Origin: Escherichia coli
Lineage (GTDB): Bacteria; Pseudomonadota; Gammaproteobacteria; Enterobacterales; Enterobacteriaceae
Assembly (NCBI GenBank): GCA_009729775.1
Contig: GCA_009729775.1_4081.1
Length of the DNA stretch: 64,000 nucleotides
Direction: 5' to 3' (one strand)
This document shows positions 10,314-50,665 of this stretch, in pieces. Numbering within the stretch: the stretch's first letter is position 1; each line of letters starts with the position of its first letter. A program made the position numbers and the translations under genes. The notes below the pieces were generated by a model. That model worked only from the letters and a program-made list of their open reading frames with translations. It was not told the origin of the DNA and ran no database searches.

Positions 10314-11831
10314 TCAATCATTATTATTTAATGATTTTAAAATTTGCACTGTTTCATCCTTTTTACCTGAAAGTAAAATGTCAGCAGCAAGTAGAGAAAC
10401 CTCATCACCACGAGTTAGTAGCACTGTGATTTTTTTAGCATAAGGTGACTCTTTAATTTTAGAAGCTAATGATTGTACGTCATCACCAGCAATTGTTTCA
10501 GATTTAGTTTCTGGTTCAGAAACTTCGTCTGGTTTTTGTTCAGATTCTGGTTCTTTCTTAGGTTCTTCTTTTGATTGAATTTGCTCAGTACCAGAGTCTA
10601 CTTCAGGTGTTTCATCACTTTTAACTTCTTTATCTTGTTCATATTTGGCAAGTAATTTAGCAGCAGTTGCTTTTGGTATAAACTTACCATCAGCACTAAT
10701 GAATCTGTCACCACCAACATACGAATATTCTTTGCCTTGTTTGGATTTAACTTTTGTACCGATTTTCATAGCACCGGAATTGTTATGACGGAAAATATCA
10801 CGCTGTGCTGCTCGTTCAACACTTTTAGAAGCACTTGTGTTAAGTTGCTTTTTACTTTCGATATCATACCACAAGTTATTTTTCTTAGCGTATGTTTTTC
10901 CTTTAGAAGAAGTCATTCTATAACCGTCAGGAACAGTAATGCTTTCAAATTCTTCAATTTCTTCATCTGCTTCATTAATTGATTCTTTAGTTGCAAATAC
11001 TGGCTGTTTAGCAGGTTGTGAAGCTTGTTGTGGCTTTTCACCTGAACCAAAACGTTGCTCACTATGTTCTTGTTCACCCGTTAATGTTGGAAAATCACTT
11101 GGGTTATTCTTAACAAATTGCTGATATGCATTAATAATTGCATGTGCATTTTGTTCTGGAATTACTACATTACCATCATTATCACAAAATTCTTTACCAT
11201 TCCACTCACAACGTGTATTGCCTTGTACTAAGGTTGATTTGATTGGAATTAGTTTATTTTTAGAAGCTAACTGACGAGCAATACGCATACCTTCATCTGA
11301 TAGTTTACGGGTCATTGCTGGATCAACTGCTCGGCCTGATTTCATATCAACAAAACGGTGATTCTTTGGAACAAATTTAAAACCACTTACTTCCATACCT
11401 GCTGGAATTGATATATCATCAGCATATGGTGGAAGAATGTAAAATTTTAATGCATTCCATTCTTTTTGTAGTGTTTCTTTAGAAACATTATATACTCGAT
11501 GATCATCTGCCATTAATTCAGTGATGAATTCACTTTCAGTTAATAGAATTCCATCTTTTGAATTGAAACGGTTTTCACCAATAAATGTACACTCTTTACC
11601 TTCAACAATATATTTGTTACCAATCTTATATTCATTTGAAGCTAGATTGTGCTCGACAATCTGTTGTCGAGCACTTGCGTACATGGATGGGTATTTTCTA
11701 GGGTCTACCATTAACATATTATTGTCATTGAACCAGAATCCTTCAAGAAATACATATTTTGCACCAGTATGTGACGTATATACATATCCATTAGGAACTG
11801 TGGTAGTTTCAGTACTGAAAAAATTATCCAT
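10314..11831 (-). CDS. hypothetical protein with internal tandem domain duplication (505 aa)
   Basis: Two related segments (VPNGYVYTSHTGAKY.../VPDGYRMTSSKGKTY... and KIGNKYIVEGKE.../KIGTKVKSKQGKE...) separated by a low-complexity linker. Confidence 0.55.
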   Translation of the reverse strand: MDNFFSTETTTVPNGYVYTSHTGAKYVFLEGFWFNDNNMLMVDPRKYPSMYASARQQIVEHNLASNEYKIGNKYIVEGKECTFIGENRFNSKDGILLTESEFITELMADDHRVYNVSKETLQKEWNALKFYILPPYADDISIPAGMEVSGFKFVPKNHRFVDMKSGRAVDPAMTRKLSDEGMRIARQLASKNKLIPIKSTLVQGNTRCEWNGKEFCDNDGNVVIPEQNAHAIINAYQQFVKNNPSDFPTLTGEQEHSEQRFGSGEKPQQASQPAKQPVFATKESINEADEEIEEFESITVPDGYRMTSSKGKTYAKKNNLWYDIESKKQLNTSASKSVERAAQRDIFRHNNSGAMKIGTKVKSKQGKEYSYVGGDRFISADGKFIPKATAAKLLAKYEQDKEVKSDETPEVDSGTEQIQSKEEPKKEPESEQKPDEVSEPETKSETIAGDDVQSLASKIKESPYAKKITVLLTRGDEVSLLAADILLSGKKDETVQILKSLNNND

Positions 11832-11844
11832 GTGTTGATTCTCC

Positions 11845-12387
11845 TTAAGAAAGCATACGTAACAGTTGGTCGCGTTGCTCTGGACTTAATTTTTGTAGAG
11901 CATCAGGGATACTGGAACCTTGTGCTTTTGGTTGTTCTTGTTGTGCTGGTTGCTCAGTTGAGGTCGATTGTGATGGTTGTGATTCTGAACTTTCTTCGCC
12001 ACCTTGTTGGTCACGGTAGTCATTCATTATATCACGAGCAGCATTTAATAGAGCAGTACCTACATCTTTTGGTGTAAAAGAACGACGAGGATTGTTCCCT
12101 AAATGTTTAATATCAAGATTGTTACCTTTAAAAAACTGTGCCACATCAGCGTAAGGTACTGATGGTTGAGCTTTACCATATTTACGTCCAACATAACGTT
12201 TAAACTCTGCCCATAAGCGGTTGGCTTCAGCACCAACTTCTTGTGCACCTTGTTCAATCTGTCCACTACCAAAAAAGCCTTTTACTTTTCCTTTTGCACT
12301 ATCAACTGCACTTTGTGAACGACTATAAGGACGAGCTTCATTTAACTCATTGTCTTCATAATCTAACATTTCATTAAGTATACTCAT
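11845..12387 (-). CDS. hypothetical protein (180 aa)
   Basis: ORF in track; Q/S/E-rich C-terminal tail. Confidence 0.5.
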   Translation of the reverse strand: MSILNEMLDYEDNELNEARPYSRSQSAVDSAKGKVKGFFGSGQIEQGAQEVGAEANRLWAEFKRYVGRKYGKAQPSVPYADVAQFFKGNNLDIKHLGNNPRRSFTPKDVGTALLNAARDIMNDYRDQQGGEESSESQPSQSTSTEQPAQQEQPKAQGSSIPDALQKLSPEQRDQLLRMLS

Positions 12388-12390
12388 GTG

Positions 12391-12927
12391 TTAATCCTTT
12401 TTACCAAAACCAGCACTCATATATTGAGAGTATTTATTGTCTTTTTTCGATGCTTCAATTGCATCATCAACGGCAGTGTCTGCACGTTGTTGTCCAGCTA
12501 AGTCATAACTGTCTTCTGGTTTGCCAAAATCCACTCCAATAACTGGTTCATCAACATCATCAAAATCGATATCATCTTCCAAATCAGTCATTTCAATTTG
12601 ACGAGGTTCATCTTTACTACGAACACGAATCAATGCTTCTGTCATGCTTAGTAAATTGCCAATTTCATACATTAGTACATTTGATTGAACGCCACGATGA
12701 CATTTAAAGTCAAACATCCAAATTTCACCACAATCTAATTCATAGAAATCTAATGGTTTTTCCATAAAAATTGTTTTCTTTAGTGCTCCAATTTCAAACG
12801 CATCATAGCGATCCATTAGTCGCTGTGTTACTTTACTAAGTTGTTCAGGTGTTGGTTCAACTGCAAACTTAACTCGGTATTCATAAACTGGTTTCTTTTC
12901 AGTTAGGATTTGTTGTAATCTATTCAT
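12391..12927 (-). CDS. hypothetical protein (178 aa)
   Basis: ORF in track; tight spacing. Confidence 0.5.
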   Translation of the reverse strand: MNRLQQILTEKKPVYEYRVKFAVEPTPEQLSKVTQRLMDRYDAFEIGALKKTIFMEKPLDFYELDCGEIWMFDFKCHRGVQSNVLMYEIGNLLSMTEALIRVRSKDEPRQIEMTDLEDDIDFDDVDEPVIGVDFGKPEDSYDLAGQQRADTAVDDAIEASKKDNKYSQYMSAGFGKKD

Positions 12928-12954
12928 TTTAATAACTCCATAAGGTCGTTTAAG

Positions 12955-15062
<2,108 letters not shown>

Positions 15063-15073
15063 TCATTATCTCC

Positions 15074-15850
15074 TTAAAATCCTACACTACCAAAAACACG
15101 ATCAATGATATCTAAACCTTGATTGACATTTTCAGGTAAAAGTGAATTAATTCTGGTACTATACATTTCTTCAATGTTATCAAATTGTATACAATTATCT
15201 GGTTTGATAGTCACTACCATTTCAACTGGAGAACTTGAACTATAGTCTAATGAATCGTATGATATGTTTTGAATAACACATCCGGTTAAAACAAAGTATT
15301 CCATAACACCAGCACTGTTATAAGAAGAACCACCAATAAATTGATCTACTGCATTTACTAAGCCAGCATTATTTGTTGCAGCAGTTGCAGCATCTACTAG
15401 TGTATCTCTTCCTAGATTTTCTAGTGTATCATCTGAGTTACGACCACTCAACATCTGTATAACTAAACCAAATTTATAAGAACCATAATCTTGGTCATTT
15501 CTTGAAGTTATTCTGCGTTGAAAGTCAAGTTGTTTTTGTAGTTGGCGTGATAATGCTTTTGCTGATGCATTTCCAACTGAATCACGTATAGATATAGTAA
15601 TTGGTTCCCAATCATGACTACCTATATAGGAAGTATTAGTTGTAAATTGATATAGTTTATGAGTACTAAATGTTACAGTAGGTCTATCAATTTTATCAAC
15701 ATCTAATGCGATGTGATCACGTTCATCTATATCAGTACCGAAATTATACACAATAACACGAAACTTGTATTTTGCTTTCGGTTGTAGCATTGAACGATTA
15801 CGCCCCGATGGTAAAGGAACGCCATATTTATTAATCATGTTATTTGCCAT
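15074..15850 (-). CDS. putative tail tube protein, paralog 2
   Basis: 258 aa; clear paralog of 15945..16631 (shared N-terminus YGVPL...KQPKAKYKFRVI); position immediately downstream of sheath gene. Confidence 0.45.
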   Translation of the reverse strand: MANNMINKYGVPLPSGRNRSMLQPKAKYKFRVIVYNFGTDIDERDHIALDVDKIDRPTVTFSTHKLYQFTTNTSYIGSHDWEPITISIRDSVGNASAKALSRQLQKQLDFQRRITSRNDQDYGSYKFGLVIQMLSGRNSDDTLENLGRDTLVDAATAATNNAGLVNAVDQFIGGSSYNSAGVMEYFVLTGCVIQNISYDSLDYSSSSPVEMVVTIKPDNCIQFDNIEEMYSTRINSLLPENVNQGLDIIDRVFGSVGF

Positions 15851-42881: not shown

Positions 42882-43391
42882 TTAACCACCATACTTTGAC
42901 TTGTATGTTTCAAGTGATAAAGATATACGATTTTGCTTTTTAATTCTTTCATCAATATCCTTTGAATTCTTCACACTTCGGTATACGTCAGCTAATAAAT
43001 TATAATCTTCTTTATTTGAGCTATGCTGTGTCCAACCTATGTCTGTTTTAATACGAACACTTGCTTTATTTGACGAGTAAAAGAAACTGAAACCATTTGA
43101 CCCATCAAAAATATCAAAAGTATCTACCCAATCACCATAAGGAAAACTCATTGGGACTGACTCGTGGTCGATTGTGATATCCGATAAATTTTTTGAACAG
43201 TACTTCGCAAAGTGATAAACGATTGGATCACATTTTGATAATTCGTATTTGTATTCAATGATAGTTTTTCTATTAGCATCATTGATAGCATATTCTTTTA
43301 TCAATGGACTTTTTTTGATGATAAGAGTCCATAGAAACGATTCTAATCCGGTTTCATCAACTTTTTGTTTCTTTTTGAAAAATGAAATCAT
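42882..43391 (-). CDS. small-protein paralog family member 3 (169 aa)
   Basis: Shares block xxD(N/D)DR(K/R)xxI(E/D)xKYxLSK with 43388..43909 and 43916..44482. Confidence 0.5.
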   Translation of the reverse strand: MISFFKKKQKVDETGLESFLWTLIIKKSPLIKEYAINDANRKTIIEYKYELSKCDPIVYHFAKYCSKNLSDITIDHESVPMSFPYGDWVDTFDIFDGSNGFSFFYSSNKASVRIKTDIGWTQHSSNKEDYNLLADVYRSVKNSKDIDERIKKQNRISLSLETYKSKYGG

Positions 43392-43909
43392 TTATATAAA
43401 CCCTTAATTTTCTGTCTATTATGTATATCATTTTGCTGGATTTTCAATTTAGTAAGGTTGTTTCTTACACCTTCAACTCCACGCATTATTTGTAACATAA
43501 TTAGTGATTCGTCATATGTTAGTACATTGCTATTATTATCGATATATACTTTCACTCCACTTTCAAGATAATCATTTTCTTTGGAGTTAAAGTTTCTAAT
43601 AACAAACTTAACGCCATTTGATGTATCACTGAAAACATATCGTTCCGCACCGTAGAATGTTTTTCCACGAAATAAACCGCCGTCTTCCCACTTCCAACGA
43701 CTAGATTCATAATCATTAACGTAATCAATGATTAAAGAAAGTAAAGGATGTTTGCTCAATTTATATTTTGCATCTAACAGGATACGTCTATCATTATCTG
43801 TGGTAATAATATCCTTTAGTGAGTAGCTTTTAGATATAATTTTAAAGATAATTTCATGCCAAATTAAAGTACTGTTTTGTTTTCCAACTGATCCAAAAAA
43901 CATATCCAT
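43388..43909 (-). CDS. small-protein paralog family member 2 (173 aa)
   Basis: Paralog block TDNDRRILLDAKYKLSK; SxRWKWEDGG. Confidence 0.5.
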   Translation of the reverse strand: MDMFFGSVGKQNSTLIWHEIIFKIISKSYSLKDIITTDNDRRILLDAKYKLSKHPLLSLIIDYVNDYESSRWKWEDGGLFRGKTFYGAERYVFSDTSNGVKFVIRNFNSKENDYLESGVKVYIDNNSNVLTYDESLIMLQIMRGVEGVRNNLTKLKIQQNDIHNRQKIKGLYK

Positions 43910-43915
43910 TCCTCA

Positions 43916-44482
43916 TTAGTATAAATCAGTAATGTCTTTGTATGCATTAATCTGTTTTTGTTGTAATGAAAGTTCATTGAGTTTAGTTACCATTTTATCT
44001 ACACCAACACGTGTATAGAAAATAATAAATGAATCTAAATTGCCTAGAGTAATTCTTGAACTGAAATTTGAAAGTTTTCTTGCATAAACATAAATTTCTT
44101 CTTCACTTGGTAAACGTTTCTCAATCGGCCAGCTTTCCACACCATTCGGCTCATAATCGATTTCAAATTCAACTCCCATCACTGTGTCTTGAATGCGATC
44201 CGTATATGAACCACCGTAAAAATACTCTCTTGGTTTGGATCTCCAACGAGGACTAAATGGGTCAGTTGCGTATTCTTTTACAAATTTGTAAAAGGACATT
44301 TTACTGAGCATATACTTCATCTCAATTAGTGCTTTGCGGTCATCATCAGTTTTAAACTCTGCTTTTAGCGATGGACTTTTACACAGTAACTTAACTAAAT
44401 TGTTGTACATCTTTAATGTACGTTGTTCTTTCATTTCTTTGATTTTGTGACGTTTTGGTGGTGGTAATAAAGATTTGACCAT
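43916..44482 (-). CDS. small-protein paralog family member 1 (188 aa)
   Basis: Paralog block TDDDRKALIEMKYMLSK; SPRWRSKPRE; AGGAGG SD. Confidence 0.5.
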   Translation of the reverse strand: MVKSLLPPPKRHKIKEMKEQRTLKMYNNLVKLLCKSPSLKAEFKTDDDRKALIEMKYMLSKMSFYKFVKEYATDPFSPRWRSKPREYFYGGSYTDRIQDTVMGVEFEIDYEPNGVESWPIEKRLPSEEEIYVYARKLSNFSSRITLGNLDSFIIFYTRVGVDKMVTKLNELSLQQKQINAYKDITDLY

Positions 44483-44524
44483 AATTTCCTCCTATTTTTA
44501 TTCAATTATACACATAAAAGAAAA

Positions 44525-44553
44525 GCCCGTCAATAGACGAGCTTTAAATTTAT
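44525..44553 (-). promoter_or_regulatory. near-consensus sigma70 promoter (-35 TTGACG, 17 bp, -10 TATAAT)
   Basis: Read on minus strand; about 40 nt upstream of ATG 44482; -35 lies inside the upstream terminator hairpin. Confidence 0.5.
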
Positions 44554-44565
44554 TTCCAACGTGTG
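44542..44565 (-). terminator. rho-independent terminator overlapping fibre gene stop
   Basis: 10-bp stem with one mismatch, 4-nt loop, followed on minus strand by TTTTCTTTT. Confidence 0.55.
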
Positions 44566-47279
44566 CCTGGACCTGATGGTACACCAGTACTGGCAGGTAT
44601 CGCTGAACCACGTTTCGTTGTACTTGGACGATATGTCAAAAAACGAGTTACTTTTTCTGTATCAATTGAATTTATTCCTGAAGTTCCAGTAACTATCTTA
44701 CCAATGTAAGTGCTAGTTAAAGATTCATCAATTGTTTCAGTACTAATAACATATGACGCTTTCTTAGTATTCCTGTTCATTTGTATATACAAATAGAACG
44801 TAGTATTAGCTGGATTACTTTTTACAGTACTTAAATCAACACTTTGTATAGGTAGTCTGTCGAAAATTCCACCTAAAAACACCGGAACTTCACGTGTAAA
44901 GTACACTGAGAATCCTTGTGCAACGTCTTGTGATACTACCACAATCTTTTCTTTAACGCTACCATTTCCGCTAATTAAACCATCCATTTCAGCAGATGTT
45001 GTACCAAAAACGCTGAATACAGATTTGGTTTGATAGTCAGAATCTTGAAAATTGTAATATCCAAAACCAACACCAGGAATAACACCATGTTGATATGCTG
45101 CACCAAGTTGGATGTAACTAGATGATAAAAAACGATTTGATGTTATGACACCATCTACTGTTTTAGCTATCATCATCTTAAATTGTGCATTACCTGGTTG
45201 TGAAAATTGATGTACGGCATCAACACCAATGTAACCAAATCCTGAATATTTTGCAACTGTTAGACCAGTACAACGTTTCATATATGCTTCAGTAATAATT
45301 CCTGTAACAGAACTCAGTGTTTCATATCTAGTACTCACCAATGTAGCTGAAGTTATGTTAGTTCCAGATAATACAACATCAACTTCGGCATAGATTGCAT
45401 AACCTTGGTTATTGTTAAGATTATATGCTGAAACTACTGCGATGGATTTAGAAAAAGTATTATCAGGTACATAATATAATACAATTTGTCCAGATAGTGT
45501 ACCAACAATGCCAGAGTTTCCTATATTAGCAAAAATATCTTGTTTTAATGATTCTAATACCGTTGGTTCTATTGTATATGTTTCATCAAATTCTAAAGTA
45601 TCTGGATTTAATAATCCACCACTTGTTTTATATACACCTTCAATGAATGATGTTCCATAGCATCTAACACTACCATCGGTATCAACAAGAGAAATCATAG
45701 CAGTGTATGTAAAATCATCGCCTATTTGTTTACGATTAGATTGTGGTGCAAAACCATTTAATGTAGTATTATGTTGAACTGAGTTATATTGATATGTTGG
45801 TTGTGAACCTATTTCAGAAAAAACAGTATTATTATAATTATATGTTACATCATCATACGTACCAGAACATGCTAATAATATTTTTCTATTATCGATGAAA
45901 CGTACACCTAAAAGGTTTGCACCAACAGCACTACCAAAAACTGGTAAAACGTTTGCATTTATAACATTACTTGCGGATCTAGTACTGGCAACCCATGAAT
46001 CAAACGGTGTACCACTAACCTTATATCGTTGTAGACCATAAAATTCAGTTGAACTCCATCTAAATTTAGATGCAAATACCAAACCATCTTTAGTTTGACA
46101 TAAACCACCTGCGTTTCCTAATACGCCAGCAGCAGTTGTCCCGGTGAAGTTGACCATATCAATTTCAAAAGGGTTAGAAACTTGAAATCCATTATTATAT
46201 GAAACAGTCGCAGGTGCACGAGCACTACCATCTAGGGACATAGATTTTGAGTTTATATTATAAACAAAACTTATGCCAGTACCATAAACTGTTGAAATAT
46301 ACAAAGGTGTAACCATTCGATGTGTTGGATATAAAGTTACACGTATTTTTGATAAATCAGGACTAACGTTGGCTTGTATATTAAAGTCTGTATAATCTGA
46401 AAATTCTACACGTGATACGGGTGATGTAACTTCGAATAATGAATCCGAGCTAGTACCAACACTATATAATTTATCGAACACTCTTATGTTATTAGATGCA
46501 GAATAACTTGTGTTTCGAACAGTTTGTCCTGATAACCCAGTAACTTTTGTTAATGATGCCATTGAGCTTGCTTTCACATCACTTAGCTCTACTGTGTAAA
46601 TGGAAAGTGCTAATCCCAAATTAGAAACACTCTTATCTTTACACCAAATATAAACCTTTGTCCCAACAATATGTGTATATATTGGCATATCATTACCAAA
46701 AGAAGTACTTGGTACTTTAGCATGAATATGTGATATTTCGTTAAATGTACCATTGGTTATAGTGAAAATATAATTATCTTCAGTACTTAAACACCCAAGC
46801 ATTTCATAACCATTAGAGCCAATAAAGTACTTAATATTTTCAGTACTACTCATAATTGAAGGTTTATACATTGAATTGGTTGAAATAACACTTTCTTGTG
46901 AAATCATAGTTATATTTCTGATTTCTCGTATAAATGAATAATAAAAACCTTTAGTACTACCATTGGTTCCGCTACGCAGAACAACGGCGGTTCCATCATC
47001 TTCAATAATTGTTGGCTGAACTACTTGGTCACTTGACATAGGTGTAGCACCTTCATACGACCCACTTACGTTTAATGGTAAGTAATCCATTTCTCCTATA
47101 CGTGATATAGGCAACATATCTAAAATACTTTGAACTTCAGAACGCTTATATATTGGATATTGAACAATTCCAGTATTGGCATTCGGTGAGGTTCCATTAA
47201 AAGTACGCATAGCGTACCTTTGTCCAATTGCCAAGTTCCCAAGGATCTCGGCACTTCCTATAATTCGTTTTGATGACAT
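44550..47279 (-). CDS. tail fibre protein (about 909 aa)
   Basis: Track ORF 44550..47369; start at Met31 (47279) avoids overlap; N-terminus paralogous to 47895..50591; conserved C-terminal module shared with two neighbours. Confidence 0.6.
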   Translation of the reverse strand: MSSKRIIGSAEILGNLAIGQRYAMRTFNGTSPNANTGIVQYPIYKRSEVQSILDMLPISRIGEMDYLPLNVSGSYEGATPMSSDQVVQPTIIEDDGTAVVLRSGTNGSTKGFYYSFIREIRNITMISQESVISTNSMYKPSIMSSTENIKYFIGSNGYEMLGCLSTEDNYIFTITNGTFNEISHIHAKVPSTSFGNDMPIYTHIVGTKVYIWCKDKSVSNLGLALSIYTVELSDVKASSMASLTKVTGLSGQTVRNTSYSASNNIRVFDKLYSVGTSSDSLFEVTSPVSRVEFSDYTDFNIQANVSPDLSKIRVTLYPTHRMVTPLYISTVYGTGISFVYNINSKSMSLDGSARAPATVSYNNGFQVSNPFEIDMVNFTGTTAAGVLGNAGGLCQTKDGLVFASKFRWSSTEFYGLQRYKVSGTPFDSWVASTRSASNVINANVLPVFGSAVGANLLGVRFIDNRKILLACSGTYDDVTYNYNNTVFSEIGSQPTYQYNSVQHNTTLNGFAPQSNRKQIGDDFTYTAMISLVDTDGSVRCYGTSFIEGVYKTSGGLLNPDTLEFDETYTIEPTVLESLKQDIFANIGNSGIVGTLSGQIVLYYVPDNTFSKSIAVVSAYNLNNNQGYAIYAEVDVVLSGTNITSATLVSTRYETLSSVTGIITEAYMKRCTGLTVAKYSGFGYIGVDAVHQFSQPGNAQFKMMIAKTVDGVITSNRFLSSSYIQLGAAYQHGVIPGVGFGYYNFQDSDYQTKSVFSVFGTTSAEMDGLISGNGSVKEKIVVVSQDVAQGFSVYFTREVPVFLGGIFDRLPIQSVDLSTVKSNPANTTFYLYIQMNRNTKKASYVISTETIDESLTSTYIGKIVTGTSGINSIDTEKVTRFLTYRPSTTKRGSAIPASTGVPSGPGTRWK

Positions 47280-47295
47280 CTTTCTTTTCCTTAAT

Positions 47296-47883
47296 TTACC
47301 AACCAATTGTACCAGTTTCTGATGGTTTTCCAGTACTGACTGGGAATGAAGAACCTTTTTGTGTAACACTAGGTCTATATGTACTAAATCTGGATACTTT
47401 ATTAATGTTTATATTTGTAATACCACTTGTACCAACGGTCAGTGTTCCAATAAACATTATAATTTCAGATTCTTGTATTTGTGTTGGTGATATTTTATAA
47501 ATTGGTTCACCGAGAACTAACGTTGCATATACGTATTGTGTTTGTGTTCCAGATGAAACTGTTGAAGCAAAAATAGAAACTGCTGGAAATTTATAAAGAT
47601 AACCACCAATAAATGATGGTATCTGTCTATTAAATGTAAGACTATATCCAGATGAAGTGATATTTAGACTTGCATCATCATACAATTCACCGTATTGTGT
47701 GAGGGGTAATCCATTTACAATAAAATTAACTTCATCTTTAGTAATAGAGGGGAATGTACATTCCCCATTTGAATTTGTTGGGTAATAAGTCATATTATTA
47801 CCTAATACACCAAGTCCAGTACTTTTACCTTGTACTGTAACTTGTTGCATTGCCTTAAGGTCTGCTCTTATTTTATATGCCAT
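47296..47883 (-). CDS. short fibre-like protein (195 aa) carrying the shared C-terminal module
   Basis: C-terminus KVSRFSTYRPSVTQKGSSFPVSTGKPSETGTIGW matches C-termini of both large fibres. Confidence 0.55.
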   Translation of the reverse strand: MAYKIRADLKAMQQVTVQGKSTGLGVLGNNMTYYPTNSNGECTFPSITKDEVNFIVNGLPLTQYGELYDDASLNITSSGYSLTFNRQIPSFIGGYLYKFPAVSIFASTVSSGTQTQYVYATLVLGEPIYKISPTQIQESEIIMFIGTLTVGTSGITNININKVSRFSTYRPSVTQKGSSFPVSTGKPSETGTIGW

Positions 47884-47894
47884 TATGTAATCCT

Positions 47895-50591
47895 TTACCA
47901 GTTTATGGTTCCTGTTTGTGATGGTAGACCGTAGCTAACTGGGAACGATGAACCTGCTGATTCAAGTGAAGCACCAAATATATCTAAACGGGAACGTTTT
48001 TGTATATTAATTGTTTCGATTTGAATTGCATTAGTTTGAATAGTACCTATCCAAAAAATATTATATGCAGTTGTTCCTGTTTCAGAAATAACATCAGTAG
48101 TTATGTAATAGTTTGCCAATCCTTGTTCCAATTTAACATATACATAGAATGTTGTATTTGCTGGATTAGACTTAATAGTTCTCAAATCAATATTTGAAAC
48201 TGGTAGTGAAAATGACTTACCTGAAAGAATAACAGGTGTTTCCTCAGTAAAATAAACAATAAATCCTTGTGCAACGTCCTGTGACACTAAGTTAATTGGG
48301 CTACCTTGAGCAGTCCAGTTATTATAGTCTGTAATCGTTGTCCCATATTTTTTGAATGTCATTTTATTTGAGTAATCCATTGGCTCCAAAATTCCAAAAC
48401 CAATACCAGGTAATGCTGCGGGTTGACTTCCTTGTTCATAACTGGCATGAGATCCAGTAATAATAAAACTTGTAAATTGTGCAGTTGATTTAGTTACATA
48501 TGCTCTAAATTGATGAGTTGCAGTATTACCTATTGTTGGATGTGTTAATGGGTCAGAACCACCAATGAAGTAGAATGAACCACCATCATATATTGTCAAA
48601 CCAACAGAAGAAGATGCAATCGAACCATTCCCATTTGGTGTAAAGTTATCACCATATGTATTTTCAAGTACTAAACGCTTGAATGTAATAGATGTAATAT
48701 TACCAACTCTAGTATTAACATTAACTTCAGCAATTCTAATATAGTTTCTATAATCATTAGTAACTGTACTCAACATAACGAAAGCAGGAATGTCTGTTTG
48801 TTGCGGAACAAATAGTGTCATATCACGGTATGCTTGTGCTGATAAATTCCAATCACTTAGAACTTTCGCATATTCAGCATTTCTAAAATTATCAAGTACT
48901 GATTGTGTTACACTTATAATACCTGTACCATTTAAGTTTTTATCATAGGATAAAGATTGTGAATAACGTTGTCCAACCATAAAAATACCACCATTGGTTG
49001 TGACAGTTGACCCAGAAATACTACTAATAAAAATTCTATTATTTGCATTATCATCAACATTAGCACGTTCAACTGTAGGTTCATAACCTTGTATTGTTCC
49101 TAAAGATAATGATTTAAATGTAAAATTAGGAGTACTTTTATGAACTGCATATGATGGTCTAAATCCACCACTACCCGAAGCACGTGAATATTGTTTAGTA
49201 CTGTTATCTGGTAGTAATTCCACACCATTAATAAATGAGCCTACGGCTGAACCAAATGATGGACGAACTATTCCACCTTTGAAATCAGTTGATAGTACTG
49301 CACGGACATTCAGCATACTATAAACTATTTGAATAGGAAACTTAGCTTTTTGCATAAGTAATGGTTCTGCTAAGTTTGGACATGCAGTACAAAATGCTTC
49401 ACCAGAATTTAAATAAAAATAAGAACTGTAAATATTCCTTGCATTTGCATGGTTATACAATGGATCGTTATTTAAAACGTTACCAGTAGGAACTAATGCT
49501 GAACCAGTATCCGTTATAACTAATGGTGCTTGGTATGAACCAATATCATTACCCGCATCTAATGTACATTGTTTAGTACTCATATTGAATACAAAACTGT
49601 AACTATGTTGTGGTCGTGTATTATAAGTTGCCATTGTAAACCAAGCATCACCATTCATTCTAAAGCGGAAATTCTGTGTACCTGGCTGCTGTGCAACATA
49701 TAAATCGATTGATGTCATGTAAATCCCAATACCACGTAGATTTTTTGGAACATACACATAAGGTTTATCAGCGATATTCGTTGATGTTACCTGATTAGTT
49801 ATAACCATATTATTTTGTGCAGAATAAGTTGTATTATAAAATGTTTTAGTAGTCCATCCAGTAATACGAGTTGCTGTATAAGTGCCATTACTGATATTAT
49901 AAACAACTTTAACTACAACTAATTGTAATTGGTTATTTGCATTAAGTACGTTGAAAACATATATAGAACCATCTTCTGCCATCATAGCATATTCAATACC
50001 ACCTTCAGGTGATATATCTGCTTGGTTAACGAAAAAACCAGTATGCAATTTATCATCTAATGTACCATTGGTAATTGATATAAACAAACCATTAGTACTG
50101 TTAGAAGTGTCAATATATCTACCGAGTAAAATATTTGGATCAGTATTGTATAAACCAATCGCAACTCGATTTGAACCAAAAAATCCAGGCTTGTATTGAC
50201 GACTTGTGTTAATTGTACGGCTCATGTCATCAACTGATAATGCGTTAGCTAAATATGAATAAAATAATCCCTCAACACTACCGTTTGTCCCACTACGTAA
50301 AAGCACTAGTGTACCATCGTTTTCTAATAAAATTTTATTTCTACGTTGTGTCTGGTTTTCTGATGCACCATTGAAATCTCCAGAAACACCCGCAGGTAGA
50401 TAGTTTTGTGAACCATAATGGGAGATTGGCATCATACTTACTATATCTAGTACTTCATCTCTTGAATAAGTATCTAGCTCCATATTGCCATTAGCATCAA
50501 ATACTTGATCATTGATACCTTGTATTGTTCTTTTACCATTAACTGTCACATTATGTGTGACATCCAAGCCACCATATATTTTCTTTGACAT
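47895..50591 (-). CDS. tail fibre protein (898 aa)
   Basis: Long S/T/N/G-rich ORF; N-terminal region paralogous to 44550..47279; shared C-terminal module; canonical TATAAATA upstream. Confidence 0.6.
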   Translation of the reverse strand: MSKKIYGGLDVTHNVTVNGKRTIQGINDQVFDANGNMELDTYSRDEVLDIVSMMPISHYGSQNYLPAGVSGDFNGASENQTQRRNKILLENDGTLVLLRSGTNGSVEGLFYSYLANALSVDDMSRTINTSRQYKPGFFGSNRVAIGLYNTDPNILLGRYIDTSNSTNGLFISITNGTLDDKLHTGFFVNQADISPEGGIEYAMMAEDGSIYVFNVLNANNQLQLVVVKVVYNISNGTYTATRITGWTTKTFYNTTYSAQNNMVITNQVTSTNIADKPYVYVPKNLRGIGIYMTSIDLYVAQQPGTQNFRFRMNGDAWFTMATYNTRPQHSYSFVFNMSTKQCTLDAGNDIGSYQAPLVITDTGSALVPTGNVLNNDPLYNHANARNIYSSYFYLNSGEAFCTACPNLAEPLLMQKAKFPIQIVYSMLNVRAVLSTDFKGGIVRPSFGSAVGSFINGVELLPDNSTKQYSRASGSGGFRPSYAVHKSTPNFTFKSLSLGTIQGYEPTVERANVDDNANNRIFISSISGSTVTTNGGIFMVGQRYSQSLSYDKNLNGTGIISVTQSVLDNFRNAEYAKVLSDWNLSAQAYRDMTLFVPQQTDIPAFVMLSTVTNDYRNYIRIAEVNVNTRVGNITSITFKRLVLENTYGDNFTPNGNGSIASSSVGLTIYDGGSFYFIGGSDPLTHPTIGNTATHQFRAYVTKSTAQFTSFIITGSHASYEQGSQPAALPGIGFGILEPMDYSNKMTFKKYGTTITDYNNWTAQGSPINLVSQDVAQGFIVYFTEETPVILSGKSFSLPVSNIDLRTIKSNPANTTFYVYVKLEQGLANYYITTDVISETGTTAYNIFWIGTIQTNAIQIETINIQKRSRLDIFGASLESAGSSFPVSYGLPSQTGTINW

Positions 50592-50645: not shown

Positions 50646-50665
50646 AAGCACCCAACGGGTGCTTA
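50646..50665 (-). terminator. rho-independent terminator after nrdG
   Basis: 8-bp stem AAGCACCC/GGGTGCTT, 3-4-nt loop, followed on minus strand by TTTTTT. Confidence 0.65.

Follow-up and report, generated by a model that had tools for sequence, protein, structure and literature searches.

The 64,000-nucleotide stretch analysed here (the window), contig GCA_009729775.1_4081.1 of the Escherichia coli assembly GCA_009729775.1, shares 97% nucleotide identity with Escherichia phage PBECO4 and its relatives (121Q, phAPEC6, SP27 and the Salmonella SD phages), and its source is the genus Asteriusvirus, a group of RaK2-like jumbo myophages about 350 kb in size. It encodes three tandem proteins, called A, B and C in this text, which public records annotate as hypothetical. 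The reading favoured here, and held to be reasonably probable, is that A, B and C form a cassette of paralogous virion proteins at the receptor-binding protein (RBP) locus, built on a shared plan, and that B, which is headless, is kept for building the complex. The ends that the three chains share probably serve for assembly and docking in a host-recognition complex, and the centre is probably its variable head.

A and C match phrog_3573 (E 1e-267 to 1e-273) and B matches phrog_26864 (E 4e-115) among the PHROG profiles, where the families 3573, 26864 and 7449 are all carried as of unknown function, and none of the three proteins has a Pfam match. Therapy and biocontrol are proposed uses of jumbo coliphages and Salmonella phages of this kind (PBECO4, 121Q, phAPEC6, SP27 and relatives), in which the proteins for host recognition still carry the label hypothetical.

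Paralogy of A, B and C and origin of B

A and C align from end to end with 27% identity over 944 columns (E 6e-61; all BLASTP E-values are given with composition-adjusted statistics). B is related to both at its ends: residues 77-192 are 43% identical to C 787-906 (E 3e-23), residues 77-195 are 36% identical to A 774-898 (E 9e-17), and residues 1-85 are 33% identical to A 1-74 (E 5e-7). Judged by these alignments, A and C are full-length paralogs, and B is a paralog of both over its first ~70 and last ~120 residues. The original prediction, made from the sequence of the window, had named the two large proteins as paralogs and had given all three a common C-terminal module, and both claims are borne out; the N-terminal blocks that it quoted (LPISRIGEMDYLP and MPISHYGSQNYLP; LRSGTNGS) align between A and C as claimed. 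The C-terminal similarity extends over ~120 residues in a positional alignment and is not confined to low-complexity residues. Its quoted motif is common to the three proteins in one part only, GS(A/S)(I/F)P(A/V)S.G.PS..GT..W, since RF(S/L)TYRPS is found just in B and C and A carries SRLDIFGASLES (SRLDIFGAS) at this position. B also shares its N-terminal ~70 residues with A and C, a point missing from that prediction. No additional copy of the N-terminal module (N-module) or the C-terminal module (C-module) is found by tblastn elsewhere in the window.

Orthology was assigned by position. A corresponds to CBB_147 of Pectobacterium phage CBB and BF_141 of Serratia phage BF (46% identity), C corresponds to CBB_149 and BF_143 (35-39%), and the best matches of B at both ends are the full-length middle genes CBB_148 and BF_142. 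Residues 1-67 of B are 32-40% identical to residues 1-68 of these proteins, and residues 79-195 are 45-47% identical to their residues 795/798-913/916. Three clades appear in each of two neighbour-joining trees, one built from the N-module and one from the C-module, and the proteins of 190-202 amino acids lie inside the B clade, beside full-length B. Because of these best end matches and the placement in both module trees, B is by sequence the ortholog of a middle paralog of ~915 amino acids from which ~730 central residues have been deleted in one piece. Module shuffling, as first proposed, does not describe this origin. The duplication that was proposed with it is real, but it is far older than implied and concerns proteins predicted to be globular, and the triplication into A, B and C is older than the split of Asteriusvirus, Mimasvirus and Eneladusvirus.

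Homologs of B form 12 clusters with 46-99% identity, ten of them exactly 195 amino acids long and the others of 198, 202 and 151 amino acids, the last being partial. The ratio of nonsynonymous to synonymous substitution rates (dN/dS) of B is 0.02 against 121Q and 0.15 against phage UE-S1, similar to that of A and C. By these ratios B is under purifying selection and is a working gene, and the possibility that it is a decaying remnant is ruled out by dN/dS together with the near-constant length across the homologs. Synonymous divergence from 121Q (L016) is 0.45 for A (window 47895-50591) and 0.11-0.12 for B and C (44550-47883), which suggests a recombination boundary inside the cassette, between A and B.

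Distribution of the cassette and its reduced forms

The cassette survey covers 19 loci and uses a C-module profile of 261 sequences. Across the surveyed loci neither the order A-B-C nor the tail signature of each type changes, and in the relatives the cassette lies directly after nrdD-nrdG. The A-type tail (...RLDxFGxSLEAAGSSFPVSYGLPSxxGTINW) and the C-type tail (...RFLTYRPSTTKRGSAIPxSTGVPSGxGTRWx) are kept across genera, and the B-type tail reads ...RFxxYRPSxTQxGSxFPVSTGxPxxTGTIxW.

The loci vary in which chain carries a complete centre. All three chains are full length, with ~900-920 amino acids each, in CBB (CBB_147, 148, 149), in BF (gp141-143) and in the IMG/VR contig L020. The arrangement of the window, with A and C full length and a headless or mini B, is also that of UE-S1, 7t3, 121Q, L013, L017/L018 and L019. 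A is the mini chain, followed by full-length B and C, in L010 and L023, and in L021 and L022 a mini A and a full-length B are followed by a C-type protein of 568 amino acids without about residues 443-792. In these last two cassettes (10370-12073 each, IMG/VR) the C-type protein keeps residues 1-434 and the last 128, with ~350 residues gone (443-792 in BF_143 numbering), and A is a mini of 193 amino acids, so that a complete centre is present only in B.

The A-type minis (P0082, P0086, L021 and L023) arose independently of the B minis. Their C-module is 57% identical to that of BF_141 and they have the A-type tail, and on these sequence features they clearly derive from A. Both termini are retained in 19 of the 19 loci examined, and no entirely headless cassette is found among the surveyed loci. 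A more distant lineage, L011, has two genes only, which encode 191 and 932 amino acids.

A profile of the N- and C-modules finds 547 cluster representatives in 1.84 billion proteins, with lengths that cluster at ~190-250, 900-980 and 1150 amino acids. By tblastn the family is present in 173 phage records, nearly all of them jumbo phages of Enterobacterales, Pseudomonas, Aeromonas and others. The distant jumbo phage Erwinia phage Simmy50 has a tandem triad of module-bearing proteins, gp19 (420 amino acids), gp20 (1163) and gp21 (1151). In Pseudomonas phage EL the module is carried by gp114 and gp115, and the set lies beside a gene annotated as a baseplate assembly protein; gp116, adjacent to gp115, is matched by no profile, and a short tail motif, read by eye alone, suggests that it may be a diverged copy.

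The C-module ends at most 12 residues from the C-terminus in 245 of the 261 family proteins (~94%), and in the other 16 it is internal and further domains follow. These include a protein of Simmy50 (L007, 5664-9119) and the members P0163, P0178, P0183, P0205 and P0210, with 140-600 residues after the module, and the extra domains past the C-module have no Pfam match.

Predicted structure, receptor-binding locus and assembly

The structural statements concern monomer predictions (AF2/AlphaFold). The model of A is compact, globular and all-beta, with a predicted local distance difference test score (pLDDT) of 84.7 and a predicted template modelling score (pTM) of 0.76, and all of it is modelled except residues 1-55 and 871-898. 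Propellers lead its structural matches, and the centre is predicted to contain a beta-propeller with a lectin/glycosidase-like fold. The label of fibre, which had been given to these proteins, is therefore not retained, as the model has a propeller-type centre and no fibrous repetitive shaft. The shared C-terminal module is predicted to form a beta-sandwich with the shoulder fold of phage RBPs and of the N-terminal domain of TssK. Among the structural matches listed are the cyanophage A-1(L) long tail fibre (8.3) and the phage 1358 RBP (7.9), as well as the HFTV1 tail fibre, SPP1 gp22, three TssK structures, a phi812 baseplate protein and Mtd. By fold similarity, the predicted ~95-residue core of the C-module has the fold of the trimerising, baseplate-docking shoulder domain of phage RBPs and TssK. 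The phiKZ baseplate ring protein gp49 (PDB 9XQS) gave a plausible-looking alignment with the N- and C-module profile at E 0.49, and it was rejected as a chance match since it reaches 0.5 bits with the 261-sequence C-module profile, below many of 2000 shuffled copies.

The common tail had originally been read as an attachment or intramolecular chaperone domain, and the predicted shoulder fold agrees with the former. In endosialidase-type tailspikes an intramolecular chaperone promotes folding of the trimer and is afterwards removed by cleavage, and such a role would fit a module that is C-terminal, common to different proteins and closed by a very conserved tail. However, A, B and C do not match Peptidase_S74 (PF13884) even at E<=1, whereas a tailspike of 780 amino acids beside the cassette of L013, which serves as positive control, matches it at E 2.1e-11. 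The module is moreover predicted to be all-beta with an RBP-shoulder fold, and B would be nearly all chaperone, with no mature product left, so that cleavage of this kind is very improbable.

Conservation is concentrated at the ends of the proteins. Among orthologs of A and C, column identity to the window protein is 0.60-0.80 at the ends versus 0.37-0.61 in the centre, and the last 50 residues are the best conserved. Invariant residues in the centre of A are H183, R309, R326, D345, R509 and E622. In A orthologs the N-module has values of 0.63-0.68 against 0.42-0.57 in the centre, and the tail (871-898), with 0.74, is the top block, although its pLDDT is below 50 in the monomer model. The C tail, with 0.79-0.80, is the most conserved part of C, and the B tail is nearly invariant across the aligned B homologs and disordered in the monomer model. 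A tail that is most conserved and disordered as a monomer is as expected of a segment that needs oligomerisation or a partner to fold. The p2 RBP and Mtd have an interlaced trimeric neck after the shoulder, and by analogy the conserved tail could be its counterpart.

Orthologs of all three types are associated with virions. Mass spectrometry (MS) of purified virions recovered 4 peptides, covering 5.6% of the sequence, of gp323c, the A ortholog of phAPEC6 (PMC7247149). For GAP32, supplement S5 of the CBB paper (PMC5259590) records the homologs of CBB_148 (B type) and CBB_149 (C type) among the proteins detected by virion MS. The phAPEC6 record (L001, MK817115) contains intact open reading frames (ORFs) of the C and B orthologs at 12004-14859 and 14750-15385, neither of them annotated, and the C ortholog contains only an annotated 114-nucleotide 'gp322c'. 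Since these orthologs are unannotated, the published virion MS could not report them, and their absence there is uninformative. An MS paper on Agricanvirus was set aside because it used crude lysates, which are uninformative on localisation.

Virion-associated proteins could also have a role other than adsorption, as anchors of the hair-like whiskers on the tails and capsids of phAPEC6 and CBB, or as decoration or enzymatic passengers. The whisker genes of these two phages are unidentified (PMC7247149, PMC5259590) and the MS signal is of low abundance, as such a role would allow. Nevertheless, GAP32, for which no hairs are described, has all three genes and two of the proteins were detected in its virions, and a globular propeller protein of 900 amino acids alone cannot make hairs of 119 nm. 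The fold matches are receptor-binding and baseplate proteins, and the locus is that of the RaK2 tailspikes, all of which makes a role outside adsorption improbable. The identity of A, B and C as the whisker or hair protein itself was set aside because GAP32 carries the genes.

In RaK2, the tailspike cluster ORF525w-534 occupies the position directly after nrdD-nrdG, and RaK2 has no homolog of the cassette genes. In the related metagenomic phage L013 the cassette lies between the tailspike that carries the S74 domain and a beta-helix tailspike, and the two have segments in common with RaK2 ORF527, 530 and 533. Because the RaK2 cluster and the flanking tailspikes of L013 sit there, the A-B-C locus is the exchangeable receptor-binding locus of the RaK2-like group. 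The N-terminal anchors of A, B and C have no similarity to those of the RaK2 tailspikes, of the tailspikes flanking the L013 cassette or of the 929-residue fibre of the window.

In the model proposed for this complex, each chain would start with a short N-terminal segment, followed by an optional, fast-evolving centre of ~700 residues with a beta-propeller, which, going by its fold class alone, may be a glycan-binding or glycan-cleaving head. The beta-sandwich of ~95 residues after the centre would be the shoulder, which would trimerise the chains and dock on the baseplate, and the tail of 30 residues, rich in Gly, Pro, Ser and Thr, would take up its fold only once the chains oligomerise or meet a partner. 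B has lost its centre by a clean internal deletion and would be retained since both its ends are still needed to build the complex, where it would assemble with A and C, possibly as a 1:1:1 heterotrimer with two heads instead of three.

Any chain may lose its head while the ends and the place in the cassette are kept, and no cassette is headless, which is simplest if all three chains build one complex. That all three are needed for it, for example in a mixed trimer of shoulder domains, is proposed tentatively, as a possibility somewhat short of probable. A stricter form is more speculative still: an obligate 1:1:1 heterotrimeric RBP with non-interchangeable chains in one shoulder-and-neck unit, in which N- and C-modules would make up one shoulder with the ~700-residue head inserted and the number of heads (three, two, one and a half) would be tuned in each lineage by head deletion.

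The alternative is that A, B and C each homotrimerise and dock at three different sites of the tail or baseplate. A trimer of B would then serve as a small adaptor or plug with no head, either filling a structural site or holding another protein. The structurally similar p2 RBP, Mtd, A-1(L) fibre and TssK are all homotrimers, the tails that are type-specific across genera could equally mean three docking sites, and the two-gene lineage L011 is more easily explained in this way. A headless homotrimer, however, has no obvious function, and yet headless A and B types arose independently, along with a half-deleted C; the reduced forms of all three types kept both termini and their place in the cassette, and no surveyed cassette lost every head. 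Separate homotrimers are for these reasons rather unlikely, though clearly less so than the chaperone or the whisker anchor.

Several points weigh against the reading of A, B and C as one shoulder-docking RBP complex. The fold assignment is built on predicted monomer models, of which that of B has a mean pLDDT of 70.9; the root-mean-square deviations are large (4-16 Å), Foldseek E-values are just 4e-3 to 0.1, and phmmer and profile searches of PDB sequences give no sequence-level homology to any solved structure. The shoulder is N-terminal in the known proteins and C-terminal in ~94% of the members of this family; the members with an internal module restore the canonical order, shoulder first and then further domains. 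The placement of A, B and C on the baseplate is inferred and not experimental. The MS evidence is thin, as the few peptides of the phAPEC6 A ortholog indicate, and the virion MS of CBB itself did not detect CBB_147-149 (PMC5259590). The cassette lies amid nucleotide-metabolism genes, outside the main structural block, and a strict 1:1:1 heterotrimer leaves the two-gene lineage L011 unexplained.

Gene limits, neighbouring genes and comparison with known systems

The coordinates of the cassette and of the genes near it are collected in the table. The phage UE-S1 record has a terminator annotated at the position equivalent to the hairpin between nrdG and gene A. The gaps of 11 nucleotides between A and B and of 16 between B and C, together with the bracketing hairpins, are consistent with a single transcription unit A-B-C. 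For gene C, the program-made ORF list places the start at a GTG at 47369 (939 amino acids), which overlaps B and lacks an AAGGA; an AAGGA ribosome-binding site precedes the ATG at 47279, which is clear of B and agrees with the starts of the orthologs. In Salmonella phage 7t3 (L004, 5287-8136) the C ortholog is annotated from an upstream codon, with 949 amino acids, and overlaps the B gene. This start and the GTG extension in the window (47280-47369) are the same artefact, and the downstream ATG with its ribosome-binding site is likely the true start in both.

Features of the A-B-C cassette and its surroundings in the window
Feature	Position	Strand	Basis or remark
Gene A, first cassette member, full length, 898 amino acids	47895-50591	-	ORF list
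Gene B, middle cassette member, headless (N-module, C-module and tail), 195 amino acids	47296-47883	-	
Gene C, third cassette member, full length, 909 amino acids from ATG	44550-47279	-	ORF list and ribosome-binding site
A N-terminal module, residues 1-85, conserved helix and LP(I/L)SxYG motif	50337-50591	-	aligns with B 1-74 and C 3-62
A central region, residues ~86-760, predicted all-beta with beta-propeller, most variable part	48312-50336	-	
A C-terminal module core, residues ~761-870, predicted shoulder-like beta-sandwich	47982-48311	-	aligns with B 77-165; match to C-module hidden Markov model (HMM)
A conserved C-terminal tail, residues 871-898, ...GASLESAGSSFPVSYGLPSQTGTINW	47898-47981	-	ortholog conservation
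B C-terminal module core, residues 72-165	47389-47670	-	
B conserved tail, residues 166-195, FSTYRPSVTQKGSSFPVSTGKPSETGTIGW	47299-47388	-	alignment of B homologs
C C-terminal module core, residues ~774-879	44643-44960	-	aligns with B 77-165 at 43% identity; HMM match 774-908
C conserved tail, residues 880-909, ...FLTYRPSTTKRGSAIPASTGVPSGPGTRWK	44553-44642	-	ortholog conservation
Terminator-like hairpin between nrdG and gene A, upstream cassette border	50646-50664	-	consensus scan and sequence
Terminator-like hairpin immediately past the gene C stop codon, downstream cassette border	44522-44545	-	consensus scan
Downstream gene, 188 amino acids	43916-44482	-	
Downstream gene, 173 amino acids	43388-43909	-	
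Downstream gene, 169 amino acids	42882-43391	-	
Gene upstream of the 929-residue fibre, 178 amino acids	40544-41080	-	weak RaK2 ORF528 match
Fibre gene, 929 amino acids	37753-40542	-	ortholog of phAPEC6 gp314c

Directly downstream of the cassette, three small tandem genes, likewise paralogs of one another, span 42882-44482. The proteins of 188 and 173 amino acids have 30% identity over 183 residues (E 1e-14), and the third is related weakly, over ~40 residues (E 4e-4); a Pfam search gave no match for any of them. Encoded 4 kb downstream of the cassette, the 929-residue protein lacks a Pfam match and resembles none of A, B and C; its phAPEC6 ortholog, gp314c, carries a tail fibre annotation and is among the virion proteins detected by MS. 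The 178-residue product of the next gene upstream matches RaK2 ORF528 weakly (E 2e-4).

A three-gene cassette with defined borders is a strong candidate for the adsorption apparatus of these phages, and telling the constant docking ends from the variable heads gives a basis for host-range engineering. The repeated deletion of heads in independent lineages, with the ends retained, is a natural experiment that argues for receptor-binding complexes of non-identical chains.

CBB_147-149 and GAP32_143-145 are the direct orthologs of A, B and C, and all three are full length there, with no fold, function or headless form described for them. Their mutual homology is already listed in supplement S2 of the CBB paper (PMC5259590), so the paralogy itself is not new. 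Literature searches found no description of the shoulder-like fold, the fixed A-B-C cassette, the headless derivatives or the equivalence with the RaK2 tailspike locus. The RaK2 tailspike/depolymerase cluster ORF525w-534 resembles A-B-C in its place directly after nrdD-nrdG in a related jumbo phage, but its tailspikes have no sequence similarity to A, B or C, are beta-helix proteins and have shared N-terminal anchors of their own.

The shoulder of the lactococcal phage p2 RBP ORF18 (PDB 2WZP, 1ZRU) and its relatives in the 1358 RBP, Bordetella phage Mtd and SPP1 gp22 has no sequence similarity to A, B and C. In p2-type RBPs an N-terminal shoulder is followed by the neck and a C-terminal head in one chain, whereas in A, B and C the predicted shoulder is C-terminal, the head-like region lies upstream of it, and there are three paralogous chains. 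The long tail fibre gp34 of cyanophage A-1(L) (PDB 8KEC), whose shoulder anchors the fibre to the baseplate wedge as seen by cryo-electron microscopy (PMC10966104), is a homotrimer in which the shoulder is N-terminal and the arm long and fibrous, and a paralog set is not known for it, unlike A, B and C. TssK (PDB 5Y0E, 6N38, 5M30), from the baseplate of the type VI secretion system, is a bacterial secretion protein with another domain order and no propeller, and it matches less well than the phage RBPs do.

The closest functional analogy is with the peripheral fibre proteins gp131, gp133, gp134 and gp135 of phiKZ. The 2026 phiKZ atlas (PMC13250141) models them as assembling together into one hetero-oligomeric fibre base, with a beta-propeller head on gp131. 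Like A, B and C they are encoded in tandem in a jumbo phage and are paralogs with a terminal module in common, but in phiKZ this module is N-terminal and a helical bundle, and a headless member is not described. The full-length and N- and C-module profiles match no ORF in the 125-200 kb region of phiKZ, which contains gp131-135, and homology to these proteins was thus not found. As modelled, A, B and C belong to the shoulder-docking type of RBP, but with a reversed or inserted domain order and with three non-identical chains. The phiKZ structure has very recently brought up the idea of non-identical chains, and A-B-C offers a second, unrelated family in which to test it.

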